From the IMG/VR virus record IMGVR_UViG_3300011116_000225, positions 5,408 through 69,407 of that record: a stretch of 64,000 bases of DNA. One strand, written 5' to 3'. The notes under the pieces were generated by a model. That model had not been told where the DNA came from. It did no database searches and saw only the letters and a list, made by a program, of their open reading frames with translations. The stretch comes from a virus. Of this stretch, positions 16,072 to 58,678 are shown in pieces (position 1 is the stretch's first letter; each line of letters opens with the position of its first letter). The position numbers were made by a program, and so were the translations under genes.

Positions 16072-16165
16072 GGCGGGTTCATCCTCCCGCTGATTGCACC
16101 GGGCACTCCACCCGATGCGGTTGCCACTTAGGGGGCTGGGCAGCGTTGTCTGGCCCCCATTTTTT
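16072..16165 (+). ncRNA. Candidate three-hairpin small RNA ending in an intrinsic terminator
   Basis: TACAAT -10 at 16060; stems GGCGGG/CCCGCT, ATTGCA-CGGG/CCCG-TGCGGT and GGGGGC../..GCCCCC plus T-tract; loops invariant in copy 2. Confidence 0.55.
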
Positions 16166-16172
16166 CATGGTC

Positions 16173-16202
16173 TTGCACAAGTTGTCAATTTGGGGTTAAC
16201 AT
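16173..16202 (+). promoter_or_regulatory. Rightward promoter, probably giving a leaderless HTH mRNA
   Basis: TTGCAC-N18-TAACAT ends 7 nt before ATG 16210, no SD; conserved in copy 2. Confidence 0.45.
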
Positions 16203-19702: not shown

Positions 19703-19719
19703 GACGTAACGAATTAAGG

Positions 19720-19747
19720 GCCGGGGCTTTGTCCCCGGCTTTTTTTT
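19720..19747 (+). terminator. Rho-independent terminator
   Basis: GCCGGGG-CTTTGT-CCCCGGC followed by T8; identical in copy 2. Confidence 0.85.
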
Positions 19748-19752
19748 CCCTC

Positions 19753-19866
19753 ATGGAATCAAAAGAAGAATTCTGGCAACTGCTGGTGCTCATGTTGGCA
19801 CGGCGGGTGTACGAATTAGAAGAACGGCTCAAGAAATTGGAGAAGAAATGCAAGCCGAACAAATAG
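19753..19866 (+). CDS. 37-aa coiled-coil peptide
   Basis: MESKEEFWQLLVLMLARRVYELE...; conserved at 53509. Confidence 0.55.
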   Translation: MESKEEFWQLLVLMLARRVYELEERLKKLEKKCKPNK

Positions 19867-21941
19867 CAAAGGCGCTTGGCAACGCAAAGAGAGTTGGCAA
19901 AGGATGGTTGGCAAGTTGCCCATTGCCAGGGCATGGACAGGGCCATGGAGACAAGAACCCGAGTCTTTCCATCAGTGATGGAGATGACGGCAAACCCCTC
20001 TTTAAGTGCCACTCTGGTTGCGATCAGCATGAAGTGTTTGCGGCCATCAGGGATTACGGGCTGCTGCCAGACATTGAGATACGTGACCCTTTGGCATCGA
20101 TCAAGCCACTGCCTGCGCTCCAGGCACCAGTCCTTGAGCATGAGTGGGTTTATGTTGACGAGTATGGGGACCCGCTGTTTGTCAAGCAGAGATTTAAGAC
20201 CAGCACGGCCAAGGGTAAAGATTACAAGCTCATGCGCTGCGTCAAACAGCCAGATGGAACCCATGCCAGGTTTCCAGGGTTCAAAGACACGCGCCTGGTG
20301 CCCTATCGATTCCCCGAACTGCTGAACGCAAAGGCTGCGGGAAGGACCATCTTTTTGACCGAAGGCGAGAAGGCAGCCGATGCCTTGGTATCAATTGGAG
20401 TCATTGCCACAAGTGCTCATGCGGGATCAGGGTCATGGCCCGAGGAGATCACCCAGTATTTTGCTGGGGCAGTTGTCATCATGGTCCCAGACAACGACCT
20501 GGCGGGTTGGAAGTACGCCCACAAGGTGGCCGCAGCCTTGGTCCCGGTGGTGAAGTCCTTGAGGATCTTGGACCTGCCAGTTGAAGCGGCAACAGATGAT
20601 GCCTGGGAATGGGTCAACGTCTTGGGCGGCACCAGGCAAGAACTGGTCGAATTGGCAAAGGTCAGCCCATTGGTGACCTCGCAAGATGATGTAACGATCC
20701 CGGCAAGATTGGTGGCGGCACCGCAAAGCTCAGTTGCAGAACCATTTGCCGAATCTGCCGAACAGGTTGCAGAACCCAAAACCCAGGAACCTTACAAACC
20801 CTTCAAGATCGAGTCCTGGCAGTCAGTCAAGGATGAACCCGTCAACTGGTTAATCGAAGGCGTGATCCCTGAGAAGTCTTTTGTGGCCCTGTATGGGCCG
20901 CCAGCGTCATTCAAGTCATTCATTGCCATGGACATTGCCGAGTGCATCGCATCAGGCCGTGACTGGTTGGGAAACAAGATCAACGGCACCGGGCCAGTCC
21001 TATACATTGCCGGCGAAGGTCATGGCGGTATCGGTGCCAGGATTGCAGCCATCAAGCAGCACCACAACACGCCAGATGATGCACAGGTGTACGTTGTGCG
21101 CTCCCAGATCAACCTCAGATCAAGCGTTGATGATTTCTTGGCGCTCATTTCGGCCATCGATGAGCTGGTCAAGGAACTGGGTGTCGACCTGCGCATGATC
21201 ATCATCGATACCCTGGCCAGAGCATTTGGCGGGGGAAATGAGAACTCGAGTGATGACATGGGTGCCTTCATCCAGGCCACGGGAAAGATCCAAAACAGGT
21301 ACAGGTGCTCACTTATGCTGCTGCACCACGCTGGCAAGGACACGACAAAAGGACTGCGTGGGCACTCCAGTCTGCTGGGTGCCGTGGACACGCAAATGGA
21401 GATCATGCGGTTTCCAGAAACCACCAAAGGCTTGATCCTCATGTCCAAGCAAAAGGACGGTGAGGACGGTCAGAGGTACGGGTTTGAGGCCATCACGGTG
21501 GACATTGACAGGTCAGATCTGGGCCTGGAGAACGGCTCCAGCCTGGTCATTGAGGCGTCAGAGGTTGGCGAGATGAGGTCAGCAGACGCAGAAAATAAGC
21601 CAGAAAAAGGCAAAGCAATTGGCGCAAAACAGAAGATTGCTGAGAAGTCACTAATTGTTGCAATTAAAACCTTTGGCTCCATTATGGACACGCCAGAGGG
21701 ACGCAAAAACACCATCAGTTTGGAGCAGTGGAAGGCCGAATTCACGGCCATGATCGGGTCAGATGTGACCTCAAACCAGCTCGCAACGTACTGGGGAAGG
21801 GCCAAGGATCACGTCATAAAGAGTGGATTCGGGACCATCAGGAACAGCAGCGTTTGGGCAAACCGTAAGGACGTGACCACTGGTTTTGAGGCAGAGGCGC
21901 TGCTGAAAGCCGGGAAACTGGCTGCGTTGGTTGATGAATGA
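19848..21941 (+). CDS. Primase-helicase (Zn-finger, TOPRIM, RepA/AAA_25 helicase)
   Basis: CP...H...CHSGC, TEGEKAAD, PDND..G, GPPASFKS Walker A, IIDTL Walker B, HHAGKD, RGHSSL. Confidence 0.9.
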   Translation: MQAEQIAKALGNAKRVGKGWLASCPLPGHGQGHGDKNPSLSISDGDDGKPLFKCHSGCDQHEVFAAIRDYGLLPDIEIRDPLASIKPLPALQAPVLEHEWVYVDEYGDPLFVKQRFKTSTAKGKDYKLMRCVKQPDGTHARFPGFKDTRLVPYRFPELLNAKAAGRTIFLTEGEKAADALVSIGVIATSAHAGSGSWPEEITQYFAGAVVIMVPDNDLAGWKYAHKVAAALVPVVKSLRILDLPVEAATDDAWEWVNVLGGTRQELVELAKVSPLVTSQDDVTIPARLVAAPQSSVAEPFAESAEQVAEPKTQEPYKPFKIESWQSVKDEPVNWLIEGVIPEKSFVALYGPPASFKSFIAMDIAECIASGRDWLGNKINGTGPVLYIAGEGHGGIGARIAAIKQHHNTPDDAQVYVVRSQINLRSSVDDFLALISAIDELVKELGVDLRMIIIDTLARAFGGGNENSSDDMGAFIQATGKIQNRYRCSLMLLHHAGKDTTKGLRGHSSLLGAVDTQMEIMRFPETTKGLILMSKQKDGEDGQRYGFEAITVDIDRSDLGLENGSSLVIEASEVGEMRSADAENKPEKGKAIGAKQKIAEKSLIVAIKTFGSIMDTPEGRKNTISLEQWKAEFTAMIGSDVTSNQLATYWGRAKDHVIKSGFGTIRNSSVWANRKDVTTGFEAEALLKAGKLAALVDE

Positions 21942-21967
21942 GTCATGCGAACGTTGACAATGTCATC

Positions 21968-22100
21968 CACCACAAACACCACAAACACCACAGATGTGGT
22001 GAGGTTGTGGTGCCACATTCACCACAAACACCACAAACACCCCTATAAGGGGTTGTTTGTGGTGTGGTGTGTGGTGTGGTGTTTTGTTGGTGTAGTGTTT
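21968..22100. repeat. Iteron-like CACCACA(AA)/TGTGGTG direct and inverted repeat array; putative replication origin
   Basis: Five CACCACA units plus inverted TGTGGTG units around a CCCC-TATAA-GGGG hairpin, just after the primase-helicase stop. Confidence 0.7.
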
Positions 22101-22135
22101 AGCAAATTGATGATTAATGGATTGGAGGTAAAAGG

Positions 22136-22834
22136 ATGAGCGCAAAACAGGGTCAGGTGGGTCAGGGCAAAAGTCGGATGCCAGGTCGTGGGGTCAAGCC
22201 AGATTTCCCGGCGACCGATTTTGAGATCAGGCAGGCATCATGGTTGGCTGAAATTGAGCGCGTTAAGGTGGATCAGGATCGAAAATGGGGTACTGATAGA
22301 TTGTGTACTTTAGTTGATCTAGGGTTTCGGGAGAAATTCTGGCAGCAACAGCAAAGGGTTTGGCAGGCTTGTCAGGCCAGGGACAGTGAAAGGCTTGAGA
22401 AGTCAGCAGCAGGCATGGTCAGGGCGTATCAGGCGCTCGAGGCCTGGGCAGTCCAGCACGCAGTGCCTGTGCGGCCTGCCGTGGGCGCGGTTGAGCACGT
22501 TGGCAAAGATGGGAAACTGATGGTGGTGGTCGCAACCAAGCAAGATGCGGTCTGGTATCGCGAGAACCGTCCAGACGTTGAAGGCCAGCACGTTTGGTCC
22601 ATGGAGGAGATCGAGCTGCTGATTGAGGCTGAGATCAACCAGGCAGTGGTCGAGGCAAAGATCAGGTACGCTAGGTTTGACCCGGTGGTGGTCAATGTGG
22701 AGAAGTTGGGGGGTGAGACGGGCTTTGATGATTTTGTCAATGACCTGGATCTGTCAGCGCCAACGAAGGCACCTAAAATGTTTGACAGCAAAACAGCGGA
22801 GAAATTCAAGCATGGACAAAATCAGGCGATTTAA
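22136..22834 (+). CDS. Conserved hypothetical protein upstream of terS
   Basis: GGAGG RBS; conserved at 57152. Confidence 0.8.
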   Translation: MSAKQGQVGQGKSRMPGRGVKPDFPATDFEIRQASWLAEIERVKVDQDRKWGTDRLCTLVDLGFREKFWQQQQRVWQACQARDSERLEKSAAGMVRAYQALEAWAVQHAVPVRPAVGAVEHVGKDGKLMVVVATKQDAVWYRENRPDVEGQHVWSMEEIELLIEAEINQAVVEAKIRYARFDPVVVNVEKLGGETGFDDFVNDLDLSAPTKAPKMFDSKTAEKFKHGQNQAI

Positions 22835-22898
22835 GGCACTTTGTGCCAAATGCTGGGGTTGGGTACTTGGGCGCGTAAAAAGCGCTGGAAGGGGCTAA
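22812..22898 (+). CDS. 28-aa peptide
   Basis: MDKIRRFKALCAKCWGWVL...; same length and sequence kept at 57828-57914. Confidence 0.4.
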   Translation: MDKIRRFKALCAKCWGWVLGRVKSAGRG

Positions 22899-22902
22899 AA
22901 AC

Positions 22903-23334
22903 ATGGCTGGAAGACCTAAGATGCGCCGCGATCTCGAGCTGCTCGAGGATTTGCCCGAGGATATGGTCTTTGCCATGTTTGAGGCAGGCAAGCCGATCAG
23001 CACAATCTGCTATGAGCTTGGAATCGGGCGCAGGGCGCTTGAGAAGTGGATCGAGGAAAATGACCGCGATGATATGATTGCGCGTGCGCGCGCCAAGGCC
23101 GCCGATGAGCTTGCGTGCGAGACGCTGGCGATAGCGGACAGCGCCGATCCGGAGCACGCCGCGCACGCTCGCGTCCGCATCCAGACGCGCCAGTGGCTGG
23201 CTGAGAAGTGGAAACCAAGCGTTTATGGCACCAAACAGGCAGCGATCCAGGTCAACATTCACTCGATGCGCATGGACGCGCTGCGCCATGCCGAGGTCAT
23301 CGAGGCCGAGTTATCCACAGGCGAAGGCAAATAA
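22903..23334 (+). CDS. terS: Terminase small subunit (Sf6/P22-type)
   Basis: N-terminal HTH; ARA..AD.L..E.L.IAD and R.RI.TRQWLA.K..P.VYG motifs. Confidence 0.85.
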   Translation: MAGRPKMRRDLELLEDLPEDMVFAMFEAGKPISTICYELGIGRRALEKWIEENDRDDMIARARAKAADELACETLAIADSADPEHAAHARVRIQTRQWLAEKWKPSVYGTKQAAIQVNIHSMRMDALRHAEVIEAELSTGEGK

Positions 23335-23396
23335 GTGACAACTTATCCACAGATCAGCACTGGTTGCCTGTGGATAACTGTCATTTCTGTGCATAA
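23311..23396. promoter_or_regulatory. Cluster of four DnaA boxes
   Basis: TTATCCACA 23311, TTATCCACA 23343, TGTGGATAA 23369, TGTGCATAA 23388. Confidence 0.8.
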
Positions 23397-23652
23397 CTGC
23401 CAGAGCACGCATGGAATAACTTAACATAATGGACAATGTAACGATTAGGCTTTTGGTAACGATCAGCAGATTCCAGCATCCATGCCGCATTGCACGCAAG
23501 CAGTCACTAACCAGCAATTCACAGGCGCGTGCAAGTTGCGCACAGGCTGCTGGCCGCGGTGGCGCTGACCCTGGCCAGCCTGGCCGCGCCGAACCCCCCC
23601 TTCGCGCTCGCGGCGGGGGCAGGCTGACGCAGCACCTTGAGAAACACCGACC

Positions 23653-25137
23653 ATGACCCACCCCCCTACCCCAACCCCCATCGCGCCCAGCGTCCCAAAA
23701 AAAATTAAAAAAATTGAGACAACGCTCGACCCAAACCAGAACCCGTTTGTCGAATTCGTAAGACTCTACAAGAACAACCCTGTAAGGTTTGTGCAAGAAG
23801 TGCTGGGCGTCACGCCTGACCCGTGGCAGGCTGAATTTCTGATGCACATTGCCAAGGGCAACCGCCGCATCTCTGTCAGGTCTGGACACGGCGTTGGCAA
23901 ATCAACCGCTGGCGCTTGGGCCATGCTTTGGTATTTGCACTTACGGTTCCCGGTCAAGATTGTGGTCACGGCCCCCACCAGCAGCCAGTTGTATGACGCC
24001 TTGTTTGCGGAACTCAAGCGCTGGATCAAGGCCATGCCGCAGCTCTTGCAGGATCAGCTCGAGGTCAAACAAGACCGCATCGAGGTCAAGGATGCCGCCA
24101 CCGAGGCCTTCATTTCAGCGAGAACATCCAGAGCCGAGCAGCCCGAGGCCTTGCAAGGCGTGCACAGCGACAACGTGATGCTGGTGGGAGATGAGGCATC
24201 GGGTATTCCAGAACAGGTATTCGAGGCCGCTGGTGGCTCCATGTCTGGACACAATGCTGTCACCTTGCTGCTGGGCAACCCGGTGCGCAGCTCAGGATTT
24301 TTCTACGACACCCACAACAGACTTGCTGATGACTGGGTGACTATGAAGGTAGCGTGCGCTGACTCACCTCAAGTCAGCGAGGCCTACATTGAGGAGATGA
24401 AGGCGCGTTACAGTGAAGAGTCCAATGCTTACCGCATTCGCGTCTTGGGTGAATTCCCGCGCAGTGACGATGACACGGTGATCCCCATGGAGTTGCTGGA
24501 GATGGCCTCCAATCGGGATGTTGAGGCGAGTCAGCACGCCAGGATGGTGTGGGGCTTGGACGTTGCCAGGTTTGGTTCTGATAAGTCAGCCTTGTGTAAG
24601 AGGCAGGGCAATGCTGTCACTGAACCCATCAGGACGTGGAAGAACTTGGATTTGATGCAACTCACGGGTGCCATTGTGGCTGAGTGGGAAGTCTTGATGC
24701 CAAGCGCCAGGCCGCAAGAGATCTTGGTTGACTCGATTGGTTTGGGCGCTGGGGTTGTTGACCGGCTGCGGGAGTTGGGGTTACCGGCTCGCGGGATCAA
24801 TGTGGCCGAGAGTCCTGCCATGGGCAATACTTACAGGAATCTGAAAGCTGAACTCTGGCACAAGGCCAAGGCTTGGCTTGAGGCGCGGGATTGTCGGATG
24901 CCCAAAGATGAGGCGTTGATCGCTGAGTTGGCCACAGTGCGGTATTCGTTCACGTCCAGCGGCAAGATCCAGATTGAGGGCAAAGACGAGATCAGAAAGC
25001 GCGGCCTGCCATCCCCTGACCGGGCAGATGCGTTTTGTTTGACCTTTGCGTCTGACGCCGTTGTGGGGATGTACGGGTCGGCTGGGTCTGCCAAGTGGTC
25101 GCAGCCTTTGCGCCGCAACCTGCCAAGGGTTGCATAA
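23653..25137 (+). CDS. terL: Terminase large subunit
   Basis: SGHGVGKS Walker A, VGDEASG Walker B, LGNP, GLDVARFGSD nuclease, SPDRADA. Confidence 0.95.
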   Translation: MTHPPTPTPIAPSVPKKIKKIETTLDPNQNPFVEFVRLYKNNPVRFVQEVLGVTPDPWQAEFLMHIAKGNRRISVRSGHGVGKSTAGAWAMLWYLHLRFPVKIVVTAPTSSQLYDALFAELKRWIKAMPQLLQDQLEVKQDRIEVKDAATEAFISARTSRAEQPEALQGVHSDNVMLVGDEASGIPEQVFEAAGGSMSGHNAVTLLLGNPVRSSGFFYDTHNRLADDWVTMKVACADSPQVSEAYIEEMKARYSEESNAYRIRVLGEFPRSDDDTVIPMELLEMASNRDVEASQHARMVWGLDVARFGSDKSALCKRQGNAVTEPIRTWKNLDLMQLTGAIVAEWEVLMPSARPQEILVDSIGLGAGVVDRLRELGLPARGINVAESPAMGNTYRNLKAELWHKAKAWLEARDCRMPKDEALIAELATVRYSFTSSGKIQIEGKDEIRKRGLPSPDRADAFCLTFASDAVVGMYGSAGSAKWSQPLRRNLPRVA

Positions 25138-25145
25138 TTGGGGGG

Positions 25146-25302
25146 CGTCAACACGCATGGGGATTGCAAGGCTAACCATTTCCGACCTGCCGGAGCCCGA
25201 GAGGTTAGCTGTAAGCAGGACAGTCCCCAGCCGTGTTGGTTGGCCTTACCCGTTCACAGAAACTGCGGATAGACGCTACGGCTGATGGATACGTCAACCA
25301 AC
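25146..25302 (+). ncRNA. Candidate structured RNA with nested stems and a pseudoknot (copy-1 only)
   Basis: CAACACG/CGTGTTG, TGGGGATTG/CAGTCCCCA, GCTAACC/GGTTAGC, TCCG/CGGA; loop CCTGC vs GCAGG; second stem GTTGGTTGGC/GTCAACCAAC. Confidence 0.55.
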
Positions 25303-25327
25303 AAACTATTTTCAAGGAGCAATGACT

Positions 25328-25492
25328 GTGAAGATGACCAAAGCGCAAAAGAAGGTTGGCAAGGTGATGGGCGAGTACAAGTCTGGGACTTTGCATTCAG
25401 GCAAGGGCGGCAAGGTTGTGAAAAACCCCAAGCAAGCCATTGCCATTGCGTTGTCCGAGGCCAAGATCAAGCCCAAGAAGGCGATGAAATGA
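25328..25492 (+). CDS. Small basic protein, DUF6496-like
   Basis: KVGKVMGEYK.GTLHSG...KQAIAIALSEA; AAGGAG RBS. Confidence 0.7.
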   Translation: MKMTKAQKKVGKVMGEYKSGTLHSGKGGKVVKNPKQAIAIALSEAKIKPKKAMK

Positions 25493-25644
25493 AGGCCGGT
25501 TTGTACGCCAATATCCACGCCAAGCAGGCACGCATTGCGGCTGGCTCCAAAGAGAAGATGAGAAAGCCTGGCTCGCCAGGCGCTCCCACTGCCAAGGCTT
25601 TCAAGCAGGCAGCCAAGACGGCCAAAGTGGCCAAGAAGAAATGA
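25489..25644 (+). CDS. Small Lys-rich protein
   Basis: MKAGLYANIHAK...MRKPG.PGAPT; ATGA overlap; copy-1 only. Confidence 0.7.
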   Translation: MKAGLYANIHAKQARIAAGSKEKMRKPGSPGAPTAKAFKQAAKTAKVAKKK

Positions 25645-25892
25645 TCAAGCGCGGATCTGAGACGTTCTCAGGCTACAACACGCCCAAGCGCACGCCTGGC
25701 CACAAGACCAAGAGTCATGCGGTGCTGGCGAAGTCTGGGGACGAGGTCAAGCTCATCAGGTTTGGGCAGCAGGGTGTGACTGGGTCCCCTGATGGGTCCA
25801 AGAGAAACGAGGCCTTCAAGGCCAGGCACGCGAAGAACATTGCCAAGGGCAAGATGAGCGCGGCATACTGGGCAGACCGCGTTAAGTGGTGA
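25641..25892 (+). CDS. Small basic protein
   Basis: GYNTPKRTP..KSHAVLA..IRFGQQG..FKARH..SAAYWA; conserved at 60345. Confidence 0.8.
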   Translation: MIKRGSETFSGYNTPKRTPGHKTKSHAVLAKSGDEVKLIRFGQQGVTGSPDGSKRNEAFKARHAKNIAKGKMSAAYWADRVKW

Positions 25893-25915
25893 ATAAATTG
25901 AAATGGTGAGGACAT

Positions 25916-26422
25916 ATGGCAACTAAAGACTATGAACGCGCAGCCGAGCAGATGATGAAGGCCAACGGCGCCAAGTGCCCGGTGGCTACTCAAGACATTA
26001 CGGTGAACTTGAAGAACCGTGGCAAGGCCATCAATTCGGCAGAGTACGGCCCTGAGAACCCGGCACTGCCAAATAAGCAGTTTTGGATGAAAAAGGCAAA
26101 CACCTGGGAAGTGAGCGAGAAAGACGCTAAGACCTGTCTTTGCGGTAACTGCGCCGCATTCAATCAAGAGAAGTCAATGCTTGACTGCATCGCCAAGGGC
26201 ATTGGGGATGAGGGTGACCCTTGGGCCATGATCGAGGCCGGGGACCTGGGTTACTGCGAGATCTTTGACTTCAAGTGCGCATCGAGTCGTACTTGTGATG
26301 CCTGGGTTGCTGGTGGTGACCAGGCTGACGGTGAAGACAATGGCCAAGAGTACGGTGGAAACGACATGGGTTCTGCCGGTATGGGGTCGCTGATCACGAT
26401 CAATGTTGAGGGTAAGGATTGA
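25916..26422 (+). CDS. Cys-rich protein with acidic tail
   Basis: CGNC...GYC..FDFKC...TCDAW (possible metal binding); conserved at 60603. Confidence 0.75.
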   Translation: MATKDYERAAEQMMKANGAKCPVATQDITVNLKNRGKAINSAEYGPENPALPNKQFWMKKANTWEVSEKDAKTCLCGNCAAFNQEKSMLDCIAKGIGDEGDPWAMIEAGDLGYCEIFDFKCASSRTCDAWVAGGDQADGEDNGQEYGGNDMGSAGMGSLITINVEGKD

Positions 26423-27114
26423 TCGCACCCATCGCTGTTGCCACGGTCAAGGGCAAGTGCTTGCGCATGATGATGATGAGTGTGCGCGAGTACGCCAGCG
26501 AAGTGCCCATTTATTTGCGCGGCCCTGAGTCAGTCATTGGCCCACATGATGCCGATCACCAGATCCACGGCCAACCGTCTACGTTTGGCGAGTGCTACAA
26601 CGAGGTGATTGATGCCGTCTTTGCTGACGGGTTTGATTCTGTCGTTGTGGCCAATGATGACATTGTGCTCACGCCCACAAGTTACCAAGTACTGATGGAT
26701 GACGTGGCGCTGCTCAAGAAAGAGGTGCCCAAGCTGGGCTGGGTGGCCGCTAGGTGTGATGCGTCCAGGGCTACGCAAAACATCAGGTCTAACCCGTTTG
26801 GTGAGGATCTGTACTACTTCAAGCACCCCTGGGAAGATCACATCATGCCCATGGAGTGCCCATCTCCCATCTTTGCCTGGATCTCGCGTGAGGCCTGGGA
26901 AGTGGCCAAGTATCCACCGCTGAATTGGTACTCTGATGACGTGCAATGCACAGATTTGCTGGCCGCCGGGTTCCAGCACTACTTGTCCAGGTCATATGTG
27001 CATCACGTTGGCAGCCAGACAATTGGCCTTGATGGCGCCAAGTTGATTCAGCAGGCAACGCCATGGTTGAGAAAGAACCGACCCGAATATGCCAAGCAAT
27101 GGTTTGACACTTAA
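26419..27114 (+). CDS. Glycosyltransferase-like protein (GT-A/GT2 fold)
   Basis: YN..I, VVANDDIVL (DxD-like), WYSDD, YVHHVGSQT. Confidence 0.7.
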   Translation: MIAPIAVATVKGKCLRMMMMSVREYASEVPIYLRGPESVIGPHDADHQIHGQPSTFGECYNEVIDAVFADGFDSVVVANDDIVLTPTSYQVLMDDVALLKKEVPKLGWVAARCDASRATQNIRSNPFGEDLYYFKHPWEDHIMPMECPSPIFAWISREAWEVAKYPPLNWYSDDVQCTDLLAAGFQHYLSRSYVHHVGSQTIGLDGAKLIQQATPWLRKNRPEYAKQWFDT

Positions 27115-27622
27115 CCTGGGATCTGGCCGGGACCGGCGCACTGAGTGCGTGAACGCTGATATTCGCGCCGATGTTGGCGCTGACTGGATCGTTGACATTT
27201 CCAAATTGTCATATGGTGAGGTGGTTCAGTCGCCAATTGATTTGGTGACTATTCGGCCAGGGATGTTTTCAAAGATCATCGCCATTGACGTGCTCGAGCA
27301 TATCCATGACCTGGTCGCGGCCATGACCAATTGCCGGGATCTGCTGGAGATGGGTGGCGAGATGCACATATCAGTACCCTATGACCTGAGTCTGGGTGCT
27401 TGGCAAGACCCCACCCATGTGCGTGCATTCAACGAGAACTCATGGGTTTATTACTGTGCATGGGCTTGGTACTTGGGTTGGACGGGTTCAAGGTTCAACA
27501 TGGAGCACCTGGAGTTTAGATTTAGCCCAGGCACAGACTTAGAATTGCCGCAAGATCAATTGCTGCGCACGCCCAGGGCGGTTGAGTCCATGTATGTGGT
27601 TTTGAAGAAAGTCAAAATATGA
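27089..27622 (+). CDS. Class I SAM-dependent methyltransferase
   Basis: LNLGSG motif I, NADI, DVLEHI, GGEM.I.VP, QDPTH. Confidence 0.8.
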   Translation: MPSNGLTLNLGSGRDRRTECVNADIRADVGADWIVDISKLSYGEVVQSPIDLVTIRPGMFSKIIAIDVLEHIHDLVAAMTNCRDLLEMGGEMHISVPYDLSLGAWQDPTHVRAFNENSWVYYCAWAWYLGWTGSRFNMEHLEFRFSPGTDLELPQDQLLRTPRAVESMYVVLKKVKI

Positions 27623-29811
27623 TCAACGATCTGGAAATTAGCACCGACATTGCGTCCACCGAGCAGATGGACGACAGCGAGCTGCAAGGCATCATCACGT
27701 CTGACCTCGAGGACGCGATCAGCTACATCGATTCGGACCTGAGTCCCATTCGCGCCAAGGGCACCGAGTACTACCGTGGCGACCCCTTTGGCAATGAGGA
27801 AGAGGGGCGCTCCCAGGTTGTGGCCATGGAGGTGCGCGACACGGTGAGCGCCATGATGCCAAGCCTCATGCGCGTGTTTTTCAGCACCGAGAATGTTGTT
27901 GAGTACATCCCCCGTGGACCAGAGGACGTAAAGGGTGCGCAGCAGGCAACTGACTATGCCAACCTGATCTTCACGTCTGACAACAACGGGTTTATGACCA
28001 CCTATGCCTTGTTCAAAGACGCATTGGTGCGCAAATGCGGCATCGCAAAGTACTGGTGGGAAGAAGAGGAAAAGGTCCGCATTGAAGAGTATTCGGGCCT
28101 GGATGACCAGACCCTGCAAATCTTGTCCCAGGAAAATGCCGAGGTCAAGATTGTTGTGTCTTACCCTGACCCGTCAATTTCCCAGGAAATGATCGACCAG
28201 GTCAACGCGCAGGCAATGGCAGCAGGCCAGCCAGCACCGCCCGTGCCCATGATCCATGACGTGCAGATCAAGCGCGTGATCAAAGATGGGCGCGTGCGGA
28301 TCATGGCCGTGCCGCCAGAGGAGCTGGTGATTGATCGCCGGGCACGGTCCTTTGAGGATGCTGCCATCATTGCGCACCGCCAGATGTTGACCGTGGCCGA
28401 TCTGATCGCCATGGGCTATGACGAGGATGAGGTGCGCGACAACCTGACCTCAAACGACCTGGACTCCAACGAGGAGTTTTTGGCGCGACAGCCTTTGAAC
28501 AACATCACGGGCAACAACAACACGACCAACCCTATGATGCAGCGCGTTTTGTACGTTGAGGCGTACTCTCGGGTGGACTATGACGGGGACGGCATCCCCG
28601 AGCTGCGCAAGATCTGCTGCATGGGGTCTGGCTACAACATTGTGCGCAACCTGCCTGCCAGTTATATCCCCTTTGTGGACTTTCCCTGCGATCCAGAACC
28701 CCACACCTCGCCCCTGGAGTCCATGTCGATTTTCGATATCACGCATGATTTGCAAGAGATCAAGTCTGAGATTTTGCGCAACACGCTGGACTCTTTGGCC
28801 CAGTCGATCCACCCCAGGACCGCGATTGTTGAGGGCCAGGTCAACATCGATGACGTGCTCAACAACGAAACGGGTGCCGTGATCAGGATGCGTGCTCCCG
28901 GCATGGTGCAGCCATTCAACACCCCCTTTGTGGGCCAGGCCGCATTTCCCATGCTGGACTATGTGGACCAGATCAAGGAAGACCGCACCGGCATGAGCAA
29001 GGCCGCCATGGGTTTGAACGCTGACGCCTTGCAGTCGAGCACCAAGGCAGCGGTGGCCGCCACCATCAGCGCAAGCCAAGGCCGCATTGAGCTGACCTCG
29101 CGCATCTTGGCCGAGGGCATGAAAAAGCTCTTTAAGGGAATCTTGTTCTTGATCACCACCCACCAGGACAAACCCCGCATGGTGCGGCTGCGCAACGAGT
29201 GGGTGCAGATCGACCCCCGCGCCTGGGACAACTCCATGGACGTGTCGATCAACATTGGTCTGGGCCAGGGTGACGTGAACGAGCGCTTGCAGGGTCTGAT
29301 GATGATCTTGCAAAAGCAAGAGCAGGCCTTGAGCACCATGGGTGCCGATAACCCATTTGTGACCATGACCCAGTTTTCGCGCACGCTGCGCAAGATTGTG
29401 GAATTGTCCGGGTTCAAGGATGCCAGCCAGTACTTCAAGGACGTGCCCGAGGGCTATATGCCGCCTCAGAAACCCGAGCGCCCAACACCAGAACAGGTGC
29501 TGGCCCAGGTTCAGGCCGAGTCCATCCAGGCCGATATTCAGAAAAAGGCTGCCGAGCTTGAATTGAAGCGTGATCAGATGATTCGGGATGATGATTATCG
29601 AAGAGATCAACTCGCCCAGGACTTAATGCTCAAGAAGTACGAGCTTGAGTTAAAGTACGGGGTGCAGATTAGCACTGCCGAGATTGAAGCCCGGCAGGCT
29701 ATGGACAGAGAGGCACTGATCCAGCAGTCAGCTCTCATGGCCCAGGCCATGCAGCAGCCGACCCAGGCACCAGTGCCGCCCATCAACCCTAATAGTGGAA
29801 TGGTTCAATGA
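27619..29811 (+). CDS. Portal protein
   Basis: 730 aa between terL and scaffold; YYRG, EEGRSQVV, FKDAL..KCGI.K motifs. Confidence 0.9.
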   Translation: MINDLEISTDIASTEQMDDSELQGIITSDLEDAISYIDSDLSPIRAKGTEYYRGDPFGNEEEGRSQVVAMEVRDTVSAMMPSLMRVFFSTENVVEYIPRGPEDVKGAQQATDYANLIFTSDNNGFMTTYALFKDALVRKCGIAKYWWEEEEKVRIEEYSGLDDQTLQILSQENAEVKIVVSYPDPSISQEMIDQVNAQAMAAGQPAPPVPMIHDVQIKRVIKDGRVRIMAVPPEELVIDRRARSFEDAAIIAHRQMLTVADLIAMGYDEDEVRDNLTSNDLDSNEEFLARQPLNNITGNNNTTNPMMQRVLYVEAYSRVDYDGDGIPELRKICCMGSGYNIVRNLPASYIPFVDFPCDPEPHTSPLESMSIFDITHDLQEIKSEILRNTLDSLAQSIHPRTAIVEGQVNIDDVLNNETGAVIRMRAPGMVQPFNTPFVGQAAFPMLDYVDQIKEDRTGMSKAAMGLNADALQSSTKAAVAATISASQGRIELTSRILAEGMKKLFKGILFLITTHQDKPRMVRLRNEWVQIDPRAWDNSMDVSINIGLGQGDVNERLQGLMMILQKQEQALSTMGADNPFVTMTQFSRTLRKIVELSGFKDASQYFKDVPEGYMPPQKPERPTPEQVLAQVQAESIQADIQKKAAELELKRDQMIRDDDYRRDQLAQDLMLKKYELELKYGVQISTAEIEARQAMDREALIQQSALMAQAMQQPTQAPVPPINPNSGMVQ

Positions 29812-53508: not shown

Positions 53509-53610
53509 ATGGAATCAAAAGAAGAATTCTGGCAACTGCTGGTGCTCATGTTGGCGCGGCGGGTGTACGAATTGGAGCAAAGAATTAAAAAAATGGAGAA
53601 GAAGAAGTGA
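53509..53610 (+). CDS. 33-aa coiled-coil peptide (copy 2)
   Basis: Homolog of 19753-19866. Confidence 0.55.
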   Translation: MESKEEFWQLLVLMLARRVYELEQRIKKMEKKK

Positions 53611-54884
53611 GATATTTATCTGTGTGCTCTGGCATTGAGGCCGCCACAGTTGCTTGGCATCCACTTGGGTGGACGGCAGCGGCCTATTCAGAGATCGAAA
53701 AATTCCCATCGCAGGTGCTTGCGCACCATTACCCAGACGTGCCCAATGTGGGCGACATGACCAAATTTAAGGAGTGGAACATTGGAGCAATTGACCTTCT
53801 TGTTGGAGGAACCCCCTGCCAATCATTCAGCGTTGCAGGACTTAGAAAAGGATTGGATGACCCGCGTGGCAACCTCATGCTCACATTCCTTGCCATTGCT
53901 GACCAACATCGCCCCCGATGGTTGGTTTGGGAAAACGTCCCCGGCGTCTTGTCATCTAACGGAGGAAAAGATTTTGGCACCTTCCTCGGGGCGCTGGGGG
54001 AACTCGGGTATGGGTTCGCATACCGAATTCTTGACGCTCAGTACTTTGGAGTGGCCCAAAGACGCCGCCGTGTGTTTGTTGTCGGATACCTTGGAGACTG
54101 GAGAGTTGCCGCAGCGGTTCTTTTTGAGCGCCACAGCTTGTCAGGGGATTCTGCGCCGAGCAGAGAAAAGAGGGAAGGTGCTGCCGCCAATGCTAGAGAA
54201 AGCTCTGAAGTCGGTAGTCTGATTCCAGCAATGCACTCAGAACTATGCCCATCACTCAAAGCGCGTGATGCCAAAGGCCCATCAAGTGACGGTGACGGTG
54301 ACGGTGCAATACTTGTGCCAATGGCGCAACCCATTGCATATGCCTTTGATAGTTTGTCATCCAACTCTATGAAAAGCGCAAACCCTGTCAGCGGATGCAA
54401 TAAAGTCGAAATATCTAAATCGCTGGACACATCAAGAGGGCTTGATCCATCATGCAACCAAGGCGGTATTGGTGTGGCCCAACCCATCTCATTCAGCGCC
54501 CAGATGTCAAACCCTCAGACTGATGTTGAGATGTCAGCAACCCTGCAGGCAAAAAAACCAATGGCGGTGGCAGTTGGCACTGACCTCTACAACGGGGCAA
54601 TCACTGGCGATGTTGCTTGCACCATGTCAACGCATGGAGGTGATGGAAATGGAACTGGCCCGACCGTGATGCAACAAATGGCCGTGCGCCGCCTCACCCC
54701 TGTCGAATGCGAGCGCCTGCAAGGTTTCCCCGACAACTACACAGACATCCAACTCAAAGGCAAAGTCACGCCAGACGGACCCAGGTACAAGGCACTAGGT
54801 AACTCAATGGCGGTGCCCGTGATGGCATGGATCGGCAAAAGAATACAAGAAGTGGAGCAGATGCAATGCAAGCCGAACAGATAG
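53607..54884 (+). CDS. DNA (cytosine-5)-methyltransferase
   Basis: SVCSGI motif I, GGTPCQSFS catalytic PC, WENVPG, QRRRRVF, RRLTPVECERLQGFP, GNS; copy-2 only. Confidence 0.93.
   Translation: MRYLSVCSGIEAATVAWHPLGWTAAAYSEIEKFPSQVLAHHYPDVPNVGDMTKFKEWNIGAIDLLVGGTPCQSFSVAGLRKGLDDPRGNLMLTFLAIADQHRPRWLVWENVPGVLSSNGGKDFGTFLGALGELGYGFAYRILDAQYFGVAQRRRRVFVVGYLGDWRVAAAVLFERHSLSGDSAPSREKREGAAANARESSEVGSLIPAMHSELCPSLKARDAKGPSSDGDGDGAILVPMAQPIAYAFDSLSSNSMKSANPVSGCNKVEISKSLDTSRGLDPSCNQGGIGVAQPISFSAQMSNPQTDVEMSATLQAKKPMAVAVGTDLYNGAITGDVACTMSTHGGDGNGTGPTVMQQMAVRRLTPVECERLQGFPDNYTDIQLKGKVTPDGPRYKALGNSMAVPVMAWIGKRIQEVEQMQCKPNR
53782..54222 (+). CDS. Nested alternate-frame ORF resembling the beta polypeptide of M.EcoHK31I-type methyltransferases
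   Basis: TTG start with AAGGAG 7 nt upstream; RWGNSG...LEWP...C.LSD.LE...FFLS..AC.GILRRAEKRGK.LP. Confidence 0.6.
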   Translation: MEQLTFLLEEPPANHSALQDLEKDWMTRVATSCSHSLPLLTNIAPDGWFGKTSPASCHLTEEKILAPSSGRWGNSGMGSHTEFLTLSTLEWPKDAAVCLLSDTLETGELPQRFFLSATACQGILRRAEKRGKVLPPMLEKALKSVV

Positions 54885-56962: not shown

Positions 56963-56988
56963 GTCATGCAATGTCTGACAATGTTATC

Positions 56989-57115
56989 CATTACAAATAC
57001 TACAAACACCACAGATGTAGTGCAGTTGTAGTGCTACACATACTACAAACACTACAAACACCCCGAAGGGGTTGTTTGTAGTGTGGTGTGTAGTGTGGTG
57101 TTTGTGGTGTAGTGA
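56989..57115. repeat. Iteron-like CACTACA/TGTAGTG array; putative origin (copy 2)
   Basis: Same layout as 21968-22100 around CCCC-GAA-GGGG. Confidence 0.7.
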
Positions 57116-57151
57116 TTATTGATTTGATGATTAATGGATTGGAGGCAAAGG

Positions 57152-57918: not shown

Positions 57919-58350
57919 ATGCCTGGAAGACCTAAATTTAGACGTGACATTGCTTTGCTGGAGGAACTTCCAGAAGAGATGATCTTTGCAATGGTCGAGG
58001 CTGGCAAGCCAATGTCGGCGATTTGCATCGAGCTGGGCATTGGGCGCAAGGCGTTAGAGACGTGGATCGAAGATCAGGATCGTCCTGATATGATCGCCCG
58101 TGCGCGCGCAAAAGCAGCCGATGAGCTTGCGTGCGAGACGCTGGCGATAGCGGACAGCGCCGACCCGGAGCACGCCGCGCACGCTCGCGTCCGCATCCAG
58201 ACGCGCCAGTGGCTGGCTGAGAAGTGGAAACCGAGCGTCTACGGCACCAAACAGGCGCAGATCCAGGTCAATATCCACTCAATGCGGATGGACGCACTGC
58301 GCCATGCCGAGGTCATCGAGGCCGAGTTATCCACAGGGCAGGACAAATAA
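57919..58350 (+). CDS. terS: Terminase small subunit (copy 2)
   Basis: Homolog of 22903-23334. Confidence 0.85.
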   Translation: MPGRPKFRRDIALLEELPEEMIFAMVEAGKPMSAICIELGIGRKALETWIEDQDRPDMIARARAKAADELACETLAIADSADPEHAAHARVRIQTRQWLAEKWKPSVYGTKQAQIQVNIHSMRMDALRHAEVIEAELSTGQDK

Positions 58351-58412
58351 GTGACCACTTATCCACAGATCAGATGGGATTGCCTGTGGATAATGGCCAT
58401 ATCTGTGCATAA
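58327..58412. promoter_or_regulatory. Cluster of four DnaA boxes (copy 2)
   Basis: TTATCCACA 58327 and 58359; TGTGGATAA 58385; TGTGCATAA 58404. Confidence 0.8.
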
Positions 58413-58678
58413 CCACTGTCGTATGCCCGTAATAACTTAACATAATGGACAATGTAGCGATTAGGCTTTTGATAACGATCAGACGATTCCAGAGTACATG
58501 CGGCATCGAGCGCAAGCAGTCACTAACCAGCAATTCACAGGCGCGTGCAAGTTGCGCACAGGCTGCTGGCCGCGCCGGTGCTGGCGCTGGCGCCGGTCCT
58601 GGCCTGCTGGCCGCGCCGACCCCCCCTTGCGCTCGCGGCTGGGGGCAGGCTGATGCAGCACCTTAACAAACACCGACC

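Follow-up and report, generated by a model that had tools for sequence, protein, structure and literature searches.

A conserved cluster of predicted DnaA boxes at the terS/terL junction in a large clade of uncultured phages

The 64,000-nucleotide (64-kb) stretch of DNA analysed here, which we call the window, is part of a 69,407-base IMG/VR virus record (IMGVR_UViG_3300011116_000225), and its element of interest is a cluster of four predicted binding sites for the host replication initiator DnaA (DnaA boxes) at the junction of the small (terS) and large (terL) terminase genes. Self-comparison of the window yields 11 collinear segments of 80 to 92% identity at an offset of about 35 kb (about 35,016), and the window therefore consists of two related but distinct podophage genomes of ~35 kb in tandem, ~84% identical to one another. 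The "two copies" of the box array noted in a preliminary description of this DNA are thus one locus in two tandem genomes. One unit includes a leftward block of small genes and a helix-turn-helix (HTH) gene. It also has a primase-helicase gene (19848–21941), a gene for a 232-residue protein without known family, terS (22903–23334) and terL (23653–25137), and genes that encode portal, scaffold, major head protein, an SU10-type adaptor, lysis proteins and large virion proteins. PHROGs and Pfam scans also assign to the unit a PAPS-reductase-like protein and a DUF2800/PD-(D/E)XK exonuclease. Among the open reading frames (ORFs) scanned, the same searches found no DNA polymerase, integrase or DnaA-like domain, in keeping with the earlier remark that the phage has a primase-helicase and no recognisable polymerase of its own.

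Both terminase genes lie on the plus strand. TerS (143 residues) matches the Sf6_terminase family (PF20901, E 3.5e-16; phrog_1482, E 6e-17), and its gene ends in a stop codon at 23332–23334. TerL (494 residues) matches phrog_2 (E 1.8e-48) and PF03237 (E 1.8e-7). The 318 nt between the two genes are the largest non-coding gap seen in the unit and lead into the late genes, which all run in the same direction.

Four perfect matches to the DnaA-box consensus used for the search, TTATNCACA, fall within 86 bp at this junction. Boxes 1 (23311–23319) and 2 (23343–23351) lie on the plus strand and box 3 (23369–23377) on the minus strand, all three reading TTATCCACA; box 4 (23388–23396, minus strand) reads TTATGCACA. 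Box 1 is embedded in the last codons of terS (..E-L-S-T-G-E-G-K), where it encodes the L-S-T of the TerS tail, and boxes 2 to 4 occupy the gap before terL. The second genome carries the same four-box array at 58327–58412 (starts at 58327 and 58359 on the plus strand, 58385 and 58404 on the minus strand), and the start-to-start spacings are 32, 26 and 19 in both, so the positions and distances read from the letters in the preliminary description were exact. These eight sites are the only perfect matches in the window, and the genome-wide count that had been proposed as a check places them well above expectation: in 100 dinucleotide-preserving shuffles the mean was 1.28 and the largest count 4, with none reaching 8. 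One-mismatch sites number 26 in the window and are scattered, without a second cluster. Two features of the arrangement stand apart from the count. Boxes 1 and 3 with their flanks (23309–23322 and 23366–23379) make a perfect 14-nt inverted repeat, and boxes 2 and 3 make a 10-nt inverted repeat whose 15-nt loop is constant in length and free in sequence; boxes in inverted repeat could pair as RNA or as single-stranded DNA.

A TerL scan of viral contigs returned at least 594 related stretches, and the best 80, at 80 to 100% amino-acid identity, were analysed. Within the 900 nt before terL (62,110 nt in all) these loci hold 152 perfect boxes, versus 0 in the remaining 485,844 nt; the 80 loci are homologous, so that such counts measure conservation and not independent events. 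The proposed check for conservation in related phages likewise came out clearly, as at least one perfect box precedes terL in 66 of the 68 loci with 500 nt or more of upstream DNA, and the two exceptions (L049 and L067) retain one-mismatch box clusters and the core sequence described below. Among five complete relatives (34.7–36.2 kb), 19 of 22 boxes belong to the terL-proximal cluster. At finer scale, 31 of the 32 specified box positions are invariant across 16 distinct close relatives, versus 21 of 70 spacer positions, and the free fifth base of the box varies. Box 1 is unchanged in all 16. Every specified position of boxes 2 and 4 is likewise invariant (8 in each), position 5 being C or T in box 2 and, on the plus strand, C or G in box 4, which consequently reads TTATGCACA or TTATCCACA. 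Box 3 keeps 7 of its 8 specified positions invariant, with a single mismatch in relative L014, and in L017 boxes 2 and 3 both read TTATTCACA, within the consensus. The GATC that had been pointed out after box 2 is present in both genomes of the window and is kept in just 9 of the 16 relatives, and we therefore dropped the idea of a GATC/Dam contribution. Overall, the array is real, lies far beyond chance, is strongly selected and is characteristic of a large clade of uncultured phages. The sequences further indicate that its sites are conserved as DnaA boxes throughout this clade, where the placement at the terS/terL junction is constant.

To compare more divergent members, subgroups were anchored on the core pattern TTAACATAATG(N)ACA. 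When viral contigs were scanned for exact matches to this pattern, 120 loci emerged. Half of them (60) had boxes or the hairpin further downstream; the other 60 had neither, were treated as chance hits and served as a control. Pooling the loci left 90 distinct family segments of 390 nt. Across all subgroups the boxes flank one invariant core, TTAACATAATGGACA, which in the window takes the form TAACTTAACATAATGGACA at 23417–23436 (plus strand), with 18 of 20 positions invariant in the 16 close relatives. The AT-rich tract that the preliminary description placed after box 4 is real and belongs to this block. The core recurs at 58433–58451 (plus strand) in the second genome, and its word occurs once per genome copy. 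It contains two invariant −10-like hexamers, TAACAT and CATAAT, and the 40-bp stretch of lowest stability in the region starts with it.

The array is the only DnaA-box cluster in each genome, and its fixed slots lie on both sides of this invariant core of 15 to 20 bp. Upstream, boxes occupy slots at −111/−110, −100/−99, −78 to −76, −62/−61, −52, −33, −21 and −15 relative to the core; perfect boxes downstream fall between +82 and +142. Box number, spacing and orientation differ among subgroups, and orientation differs among slots as well. The 90 segments carry one (15 segments), two (20), three (21), four (30), five (1) or six (3) perfect boxes. The subgroup of the window uses −110 and −78 on the plus strand and −52 and −33 on the minus strand. 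Spacings of 11, 23, 24, 29, 38 and 41 are found in other subgroups, one of which has tandem boxes 11 bp apart. The invariant spacing noted earlier thus holds for both genomes of the window, but it is fixed only within their own subgroup; about 25 of the 90 distinct family sequences fill these four slots. In the window the +94 slot (23515–23523, plus strand) holds only a remnant with two mismatches, CAATTCACA; in other subgroups it reads TTGTCCACA or TTATCCACA, and 11 one-mismatch boxes sit there. The sequence WATCAANNNNTTR, which we take to be the consensus for integration host factor (IHF), occurs in perfect form in 34 of the 90 segments, 33 times on the same strand at +59 to +61 or +69/+70 and once on the minus strand at +47. 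Among these segments, none of those from the window's own subgroup carries it.

Between the core and the IHF-type slot lie direct repeats that vary by subgroup: in the window GTAACGATTAG and GTAACGATCAG (23438–23466, plus strand; repeat family D7) form GTAACGATYAG twice with a period of 18, and TGTAAG occurs twice elsewhere, as judged by eye. A block at 23491–23552 is invariant at 48 of 62 positions. It runs into GC-rich CTGGCC-type repeats (23541–23593) of variable length, with indels of 1, 2, 12 and 21 nt among close relatives, and these in turn are followed by a hairpin-like C7..G5 element (23594–23619, plus strand) before terL. The latter is kept in all subgroups and shows no compensatory changes. 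Because it is found also in the distant relatives L091 and L093, which have no boxes, the gap is bipartite, with a clade-specific part made up of boxes and core and a more widely shared leader before terL. Other readings of the gap were set aside. A 75-residue ORF at 23429–23656 is ruled out as a conserved gene, since the variable-length repeats break it with 1- and 2-nt indels in relatives, and its substitutions are mostly non-synonymous. A structured RNA was sought in 23200–23800 without an Rfam match at E up to 1, and RNAalifold on 12 relatives gave no compensatory change in any of 52 pairs. A repeated phage promoter was rejected because the core word is found only once per genome copy. A search for the core word in metagenome-assembled genomes (MAGs) of the host lineage met phage contigs only, apart from one likely chance match.

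The pattern of variation within the boxes bears on the identity of the protein that reads them. The word TTATCCACA occurs 210 times in the 90 family segments, and the commonest one-mismatch form is TTGTCCACA, with 44 occurrences. The fifth base among 137 distinct sites is C in 110, G in 22, A in 3 and T in 2. Changes therefore fall where DnaA tolerates them, at position 5 and in the form TTGTCCACA. Including flanks, the consensus extends to A(G/C)TTATCCACAG(G/A), and the flanks of the strongest Escherichia coli boxes, R1 and R4, are presumably similar. The box word stays constant while TerS (47–58% identity) and the helicase (51–53%) diverge between subgroups, which fits a conserved host reader. 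In other subgroups the TerS tail includes two boxes in frame, as LST..P(K/R)LST, and the box variants found there are synonymous or conservative (TTG for Leu, ATA for Ile); this pattern points to selection on the DNA word. Relatives of the phage lie on MAG contigs labelled Burkholderiaceae, Polynucleobacter and Limnohabitans. These labels reflect binning only and are a weak hint of the host, according to which the phages appear to infect abundant freshwater Burkholderiales. In a Polynucleobacter MAG of 2.3 Mb, TTATCCACA occurs 34 times versus 12 for a reversed control, and its two dnaA genes have 7 of the 34 sites in their vicinity, at up to about 1 kb.

Taken together, these data lead us to infer that the sites of the array are DnaA boxes. 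It is very improbable that the 9-mers are read by TerS or by some different protein of phage or host, and resemble DnaA boxes by coincidence. What speaks for such a reader is that the flanks are conserved too, A(G/C) before and G(G/A) after, making the selected word 12 to 13 nt long, and that several phage ORFs have no assigned function. An example is the 232-residue ORF beside terS (22136–22834), for which attempts at assignment gave no Pfam, PHROG family or Atlas match, and a structure model (predicted local distance difference test score, pLDDT, 62.8) gave no PDB match at E ≤ 0.001. The abundance of the exact word in the family, the concentration of its variation at the position DnaA ignores, its constancy across subgroups whose own DNA-binding proteins have diverged and its enrichment in host-lineage MAGs, where it flanks dnaA, all argue for DnaA instead.

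A cluster of DnaA boxes next to an AT-rich tract readily suggests a replication origin, and a host-DnaA-dependent origin was one of three readings offered in the preliminary description. The region around the primase-helicase gene provides a better candidate. The protein (19848–21941, plus strand) matches PF13481 (E 5e-43) and, in its middle part, the RSF1010 RepA structure (PDB 1g8y, E 7.9e-9); its N-terminus shows weak Zn-ribbon and Toprim matches below Pfam cut-offs. Directly 3′ of its stop codon, 194 nt (21942–22135) hold an array of 9-bp iterons of the CACCACAAA type, a word also given as ACCACAAAC for the first genome. Five or six copies are direct at 21964–22050 and several are inverted at 22054–22084; the centre is a GC hairpin (22039–22053), and an AT-richer stretch runs from about 22080 to 22125. 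A 64-residue ORF listed at 21945–22139 is probably not a gene, as the stretch holds the iterons. The second genome has a corresponding array at 56963–57133 built on the word ACTACAAAC, and other subgroups use GTAAACAAATGG, GGTCGAATCG/GGTCAAATCG, GGGACAAATCG or GGACAAATGG. Of 46 loci with sufficient sequence, 41 repeat an 8-mer at least four times in the 460 nt after the end of the helicase match, and no fewer than 10 different words are used. The C-terminal ~110 residues of the helicase, which have a weak HTH match below the Pfam cut-off, are only 22–26% identical between subgroups versus 50–60% for the rest of the protein, and the iteron word changes with this domain, a relationship that is a correlation only. 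On the strength of this anatomy and covariation, the array at 21942–22135 is likely to be the phage origin. The iteron region has no DnaA box, and its distance from the box array is 1.2–1.4 kb in all 39 loci that reach that far.

Comparable layouts are known from satellites. The P4 alpha-ori module is laid out much like the pri-rep-ori segment of Staphylococcus aureus pathogenicity islands (SaPIs). In SaPIs (PMC9371898), the origin lies immediately downstream of rep and comprises 6–12 iterons opposite in orientation on its two sides, specificity is set by a C-terminal winged-helix domain, and primase and Rep are fused in one type. The phage resembles this arrangement in having iterons of both orientations directly 3′ of a self-loading primase/helicase gene, a C-terminal domain that tracks iteron specificity, and a counterpart to the pri/rep fusion of some SaPI elements (PMC9371898). 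It differs from what is described there in that its helicase is RepA/SF4-like, a GC hairpin occupies the centre of its array while the AT-rich part is displaced to one side, and its sites are predicted.

The presence of iterons after the helicase gene, with words that track the helicase C-terminus, weakens the case for the box array as an origin, and of the three readings offered this is the least favoured. An auxiliary origin, at which flanking DnaA together with IHF would melt the 40-bp AT-rich core for entry of the phage primase-helicase or host DnaB, nevertheless deserves consideration, and P1, which has both oriR and oriL, is a model for a site working beside an iteron origin. Several features would suit it: the array is the sole box cluster of each genome, boxes flank the core on either side, the 40-bp window of lowest stability within 23397–23480 ranks in the least stable 0.27% of the whole window, family sequences with a perfect IHF-type consensus (34 of 90) nearly all have it at +59 to +70, one subgroup has its tandem boxes, a phage polymerase was not found among the ORFs scanned, and relatives lacking the primase-helicase lack the array as well. 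Yet the canonical iteron candidate is only 1.2–1.4 kb away, and the box nearest the core has neither fixed orientation nor fixed distance, being at −33(−), −21(−), −15(+) or −77(+) according to subgroup, whereas DnaA-driven unwinding elements are directional, which lowers the probability of an origin further. Neither repeated 13-mers nor a DnaA-trio-like periodicity was seen by eye, the unstable stretch is short (at the 100-bp scale it is unremarkable, at the 13.5th percentile), GC skew shows no lasting sign change at 23.3 kb, and the IHF consensus is missing from the window's subgroup. In DnaA-assisted iteron origins such as P1 oriR, pSC101, F, R6K and RK2, the boxes are immediate neighbours of the iterons and of the rep gene. 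The phage locus shares with these the combination of boxes, AT-rich stretch, IHF site and short direct repeats within about 250 bp, but its iterons and helicase gene lie 1.2–1.4 kb upstream of the boxes and the iterons are box-free. We therefore regard an auxiliary or alternative origin as unlikely, and the array is probably not the phage replication origin.

The position of the array also invites comparison with packaging sites. In headful phages the pac site usually lies in or next to terS, and IHF acts at P1 pac and lambda cos. The array could be part of such a site, with the core and the subgroup-specific repeats as the target of TerS or TerL and with DnaA (and IHF) in an architectural or gating role. 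Its location in and next to terS agrees with this, as does the Sf6-like nature of TerS. The break points of the complete relatives (~35–36 kb) differ from one another, which fits circular permutation, as does one record whose assembly-type terminal repeats fall inside a gene region. Box 1 lies within terS, and in four relatives (L048, L060, L063 and L088) that have an extra gene of about 150–200 codons between the array and terL, the array stays with the terS end. As in P1 pac and lambda cos, where packaging starts in or next to the small-terminase gene, short repeated sites surround a bend site, and the repeats–bend site–repeats layout resembles that of P1 pac in particular; there, however, the repeated sites are terminase sites (methylatable hexamers in P1) and not DnaA boxes.

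Several observations make a packaging function doubtful. The distant relatives L090, L091 and L092, whose TerS (26–36% identity) and TerL (58–63%) are homologous and which are without a close primase-helicase, have neither boxes nor core, and MW202879.1, which has a related terL and portal and no terS match, has no array. Such box-less relatives with homologous terminases argue mildly against the array being required by this type of terminase. They also connect the array with the replication module, but shared ancestry confounds this connection. In each of the 39 loci that extend 2.5 kb or more beyond the helicase gene, gene order is the same and the array lies at +1270 to +1711. An alignment-based scan for shuffling of helicase and terminase modules extended only to relatives of at least 49% identity. 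The core, moreover, is invariant while TerS is at 47–58% identity, which suggests a host reader rather than TerS. DnaA is not known to act in packaging, and the full-text literature, with subscription journals outside its coverage, yielded nothing linking a DnaA box to a pac site. A share in a pac site is thus possible but improbable, on a par with an auxiliary origin.

Clusters of DnaA boxes that are not origins provide a third comparison. In E. coli, datA has five boxes and an IHF site, and it requires boxes 2 and 3 as well as the IHF site, correctly spaced; DARS1 contains three boxes, and DARS2 contains six together with IHF and Fis sites (PMC4585315). The phage array shares with these loci several consensus boxes within 100–250 bp, accompanied in many subgroups by an IHF-type consensus at a set distance, conserved sites among drifting spacers, and a cluster that is probably not the start of replication. 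It differs from them by its place at the terS/terL junction and partly in a coding tail on the genome of a virulent-looking phage, and by being built around an invariant non-box core with box number and orientation that vary by subgroup. By analogy, then, the array resembles datA and DARS in form.

Among phages, T5 has eight DnaA boxes in its injection-stop (iss) region, with a role proposed from sequence (Davison, bioRxiv 10.1101/866236). In both cases conserved consensus or near-consensus boxes occupy an extensive non-coding stretch of a lytic phage and are distant from the mapped or likely origins. The T5 boxes, however, are paired, with 3 bp between the members of a pair, and belong to inverted repeats within the terminal repeat, whereas the array described here has one to six boxes at other spacings (32/26/19 in the window), between terminase genes of a permuted genome without terminal repeat. 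We found no published work on a DnaA-box element between terS and terL in the full-text literature, with subscription journals outside its coverage.

The likeness to datA and DARS raises the possibility of a host-takeover element that acts on host DnaA, through hydrolysis of DnaA-ATP, nucleotide exchange or pure titration, and not on the phage itself; such action would stop or mis-time initiation on the host chromosome. Boxes accompanied by an IHF-type site at a set distance, as in 34 of the 90 sequences, would suit this role and recall the site requirements of datA and the make-up of the DARS loci given above; spacers also vary around fixed sites, as PMC4585315 reports for datA and DARS. The host lineage, furthermore, has few consensus boxes (34 in 2.3 Mb). 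The window's subgroup, on the other hand, is without the IHF consensus, 15 of the 90 sequences have a single perfect box, and neither an invariant core nor a fixed place between terS and terL is necessary for such a role. We consider a pure takeover element distinctly unlikely; it overlaps in part with the explanation we prefer, in which a sink for DnaA would be a side effect.

Our preferred explanation, to which we assign a probability of roughly 0.42, is that the array is a non-origin assembly site for host DnaA with two roles, gating of the late and packaging genes and titration of host DnaA with increasing phage copy number. It belongs to the family formed by the other two readings offered at the outset, a DnaA sink and control of late transcription or packaging, and this is the family of explanations we favour. 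The array separates the replication genes and terS from the late genes, which begin with terL and continue with those for head, tail and lysis. Host DnaA would occupy the boxes on every phage genome copy, joined in many subgroups by an IHF-like bending protein, and its occupancy would control events at the core, be it transcription that starts at the −10-like element and proceeds into terL, or read-through that arrives from terS. As the phage replicates from its own putative iteron origin at 21942–22135, arrays would soon outnumber the host's own consensus boxes (34 copies of TTATCCACA in the host-lineage MAG of 2.3 Mb), and DnaA would be diluted over them. Control would then be relieved, so that the array could act as a copy-number timer for late genes and packaging. 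Such dilution may also starve the host origin, as a side effect or as a second purpose; titration would be arithmetically unavoidable if DnaA binds. By eye, a TTGCAC-18-TAACAT arrangement also lies just before the early HTH gene. A related proposition, that the array is a phage-borne DnaA-control locus, datA/DARS-like or a titration timer, in which falling DnaA per array licenses the late genes and shuts off or mis-fires host initiation, seems to us doubtful.

Several points weigh against the gating explanation. A promoter scan of the plus strand of 22800–23800 found no sigma-70-like site, and no −35 element is conserved, the best match mostly reaching 2–3 of 6 positions; the −10-like elements form no sigma-70 hexamer pair at a spacing of 16–18 bp. 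The positions of boxes relative to the −10-like element vary by subgroup, and no single geometry of activation or repression fits all. A contig from an RNA library (X21, record 11) spans 23367–23680 and thus begins ahead of the core; this agrees better with read-through or carried-over DNA than with initiation at the core itself. More generally, contigs of X4, X20, X21 and X22 on this locus are fragmentary and represent many strains, and the RNA-library cover is indistinguishable from DNA carry-over. The fixed slots around the core exceed the needs of a pure sink, and an AT-rich core with flanking boxes and an IHF-like site can look like an origin or a pac site just as well. Co-occurrence of the array with the helicase and iterons is again confounded by common descent, and the proposed functional steps are all deduced from sequence.

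Non-origin DnaA clusters are known from bacterial chromosomes (datA and DARS), and for T5 such a role is only proposed. The present cluster is fixed at one junction in a very large clade, with at least 594 related terL stretches, and with a separate candidate for the phage origin nearby. This separation offers a clean system for asking what a phage gains by binding a host initiator that it does not need to start replication; late-gene timing, gating of packaging and shutdown of the host cycle are possible gains. A switch set by DnaA occupancy, if the array is one, would tie phage development to the growth state of the host. Should the copy-number clock prove true, it would be one built from the host initiator and common to hundreds of uncultured phages of streamlined freshwater bacteria. 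Cultured relatives are distant, the portal being 44% identical to that of phiM5 and 37% to that of Pelagibacter HTVC106P, and the helicase at most 38% identical over part of its length; no close cultured isolate appeared among the literature records listed. Assembled contigs of the viromes X1 to X3 contain 96–98% of the words sampled. Four libraries labelled as single organisms (X4 to X7) contain 52–77% of the words sampled from 20000–28000, together with many strain variants, and may be enrichment or co-culture material with this phage group.

Some further observations concern the surroundings of the locus. At the 5′ end of terL (23695–23720), an A-run word, AAAAAAAATT..AAAAAAATT, is conserved at the DNA level even in the distant relatives without boxes, and in L048 it is duplicated ahead of the inserted gene. 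The first ~15 codons of terL, rich in Pro and Thr, may be dispensable. With regard to the record as a whole, a head-to-tail pair of genomes only ~84% identical could be a chimeric assembly made through shared segments or a real heterodimer; CheckV rates the record as 100% complete and linear. The second genome alone carries a gene for a C-5 cytosine DNA methyltransferase (53607–54884; PF00145, E 4.3e-55), inserted immediately before its primase-helicase gene. In the early region, a strong hairpin at 16131–16158 is flanked on both sides by A and T runs, beside a canonical leftward promoter, TTGACA-18-TGAAAAAAT, at 16188–16159. The 16131–16202 region may also contain a rightward promoter, which would yield a leaderless mRNA for the HTH gene. 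Finally, a strong terminator-like hairpin lies at 19716–19743, just 5′ of the primase-helicase gene.

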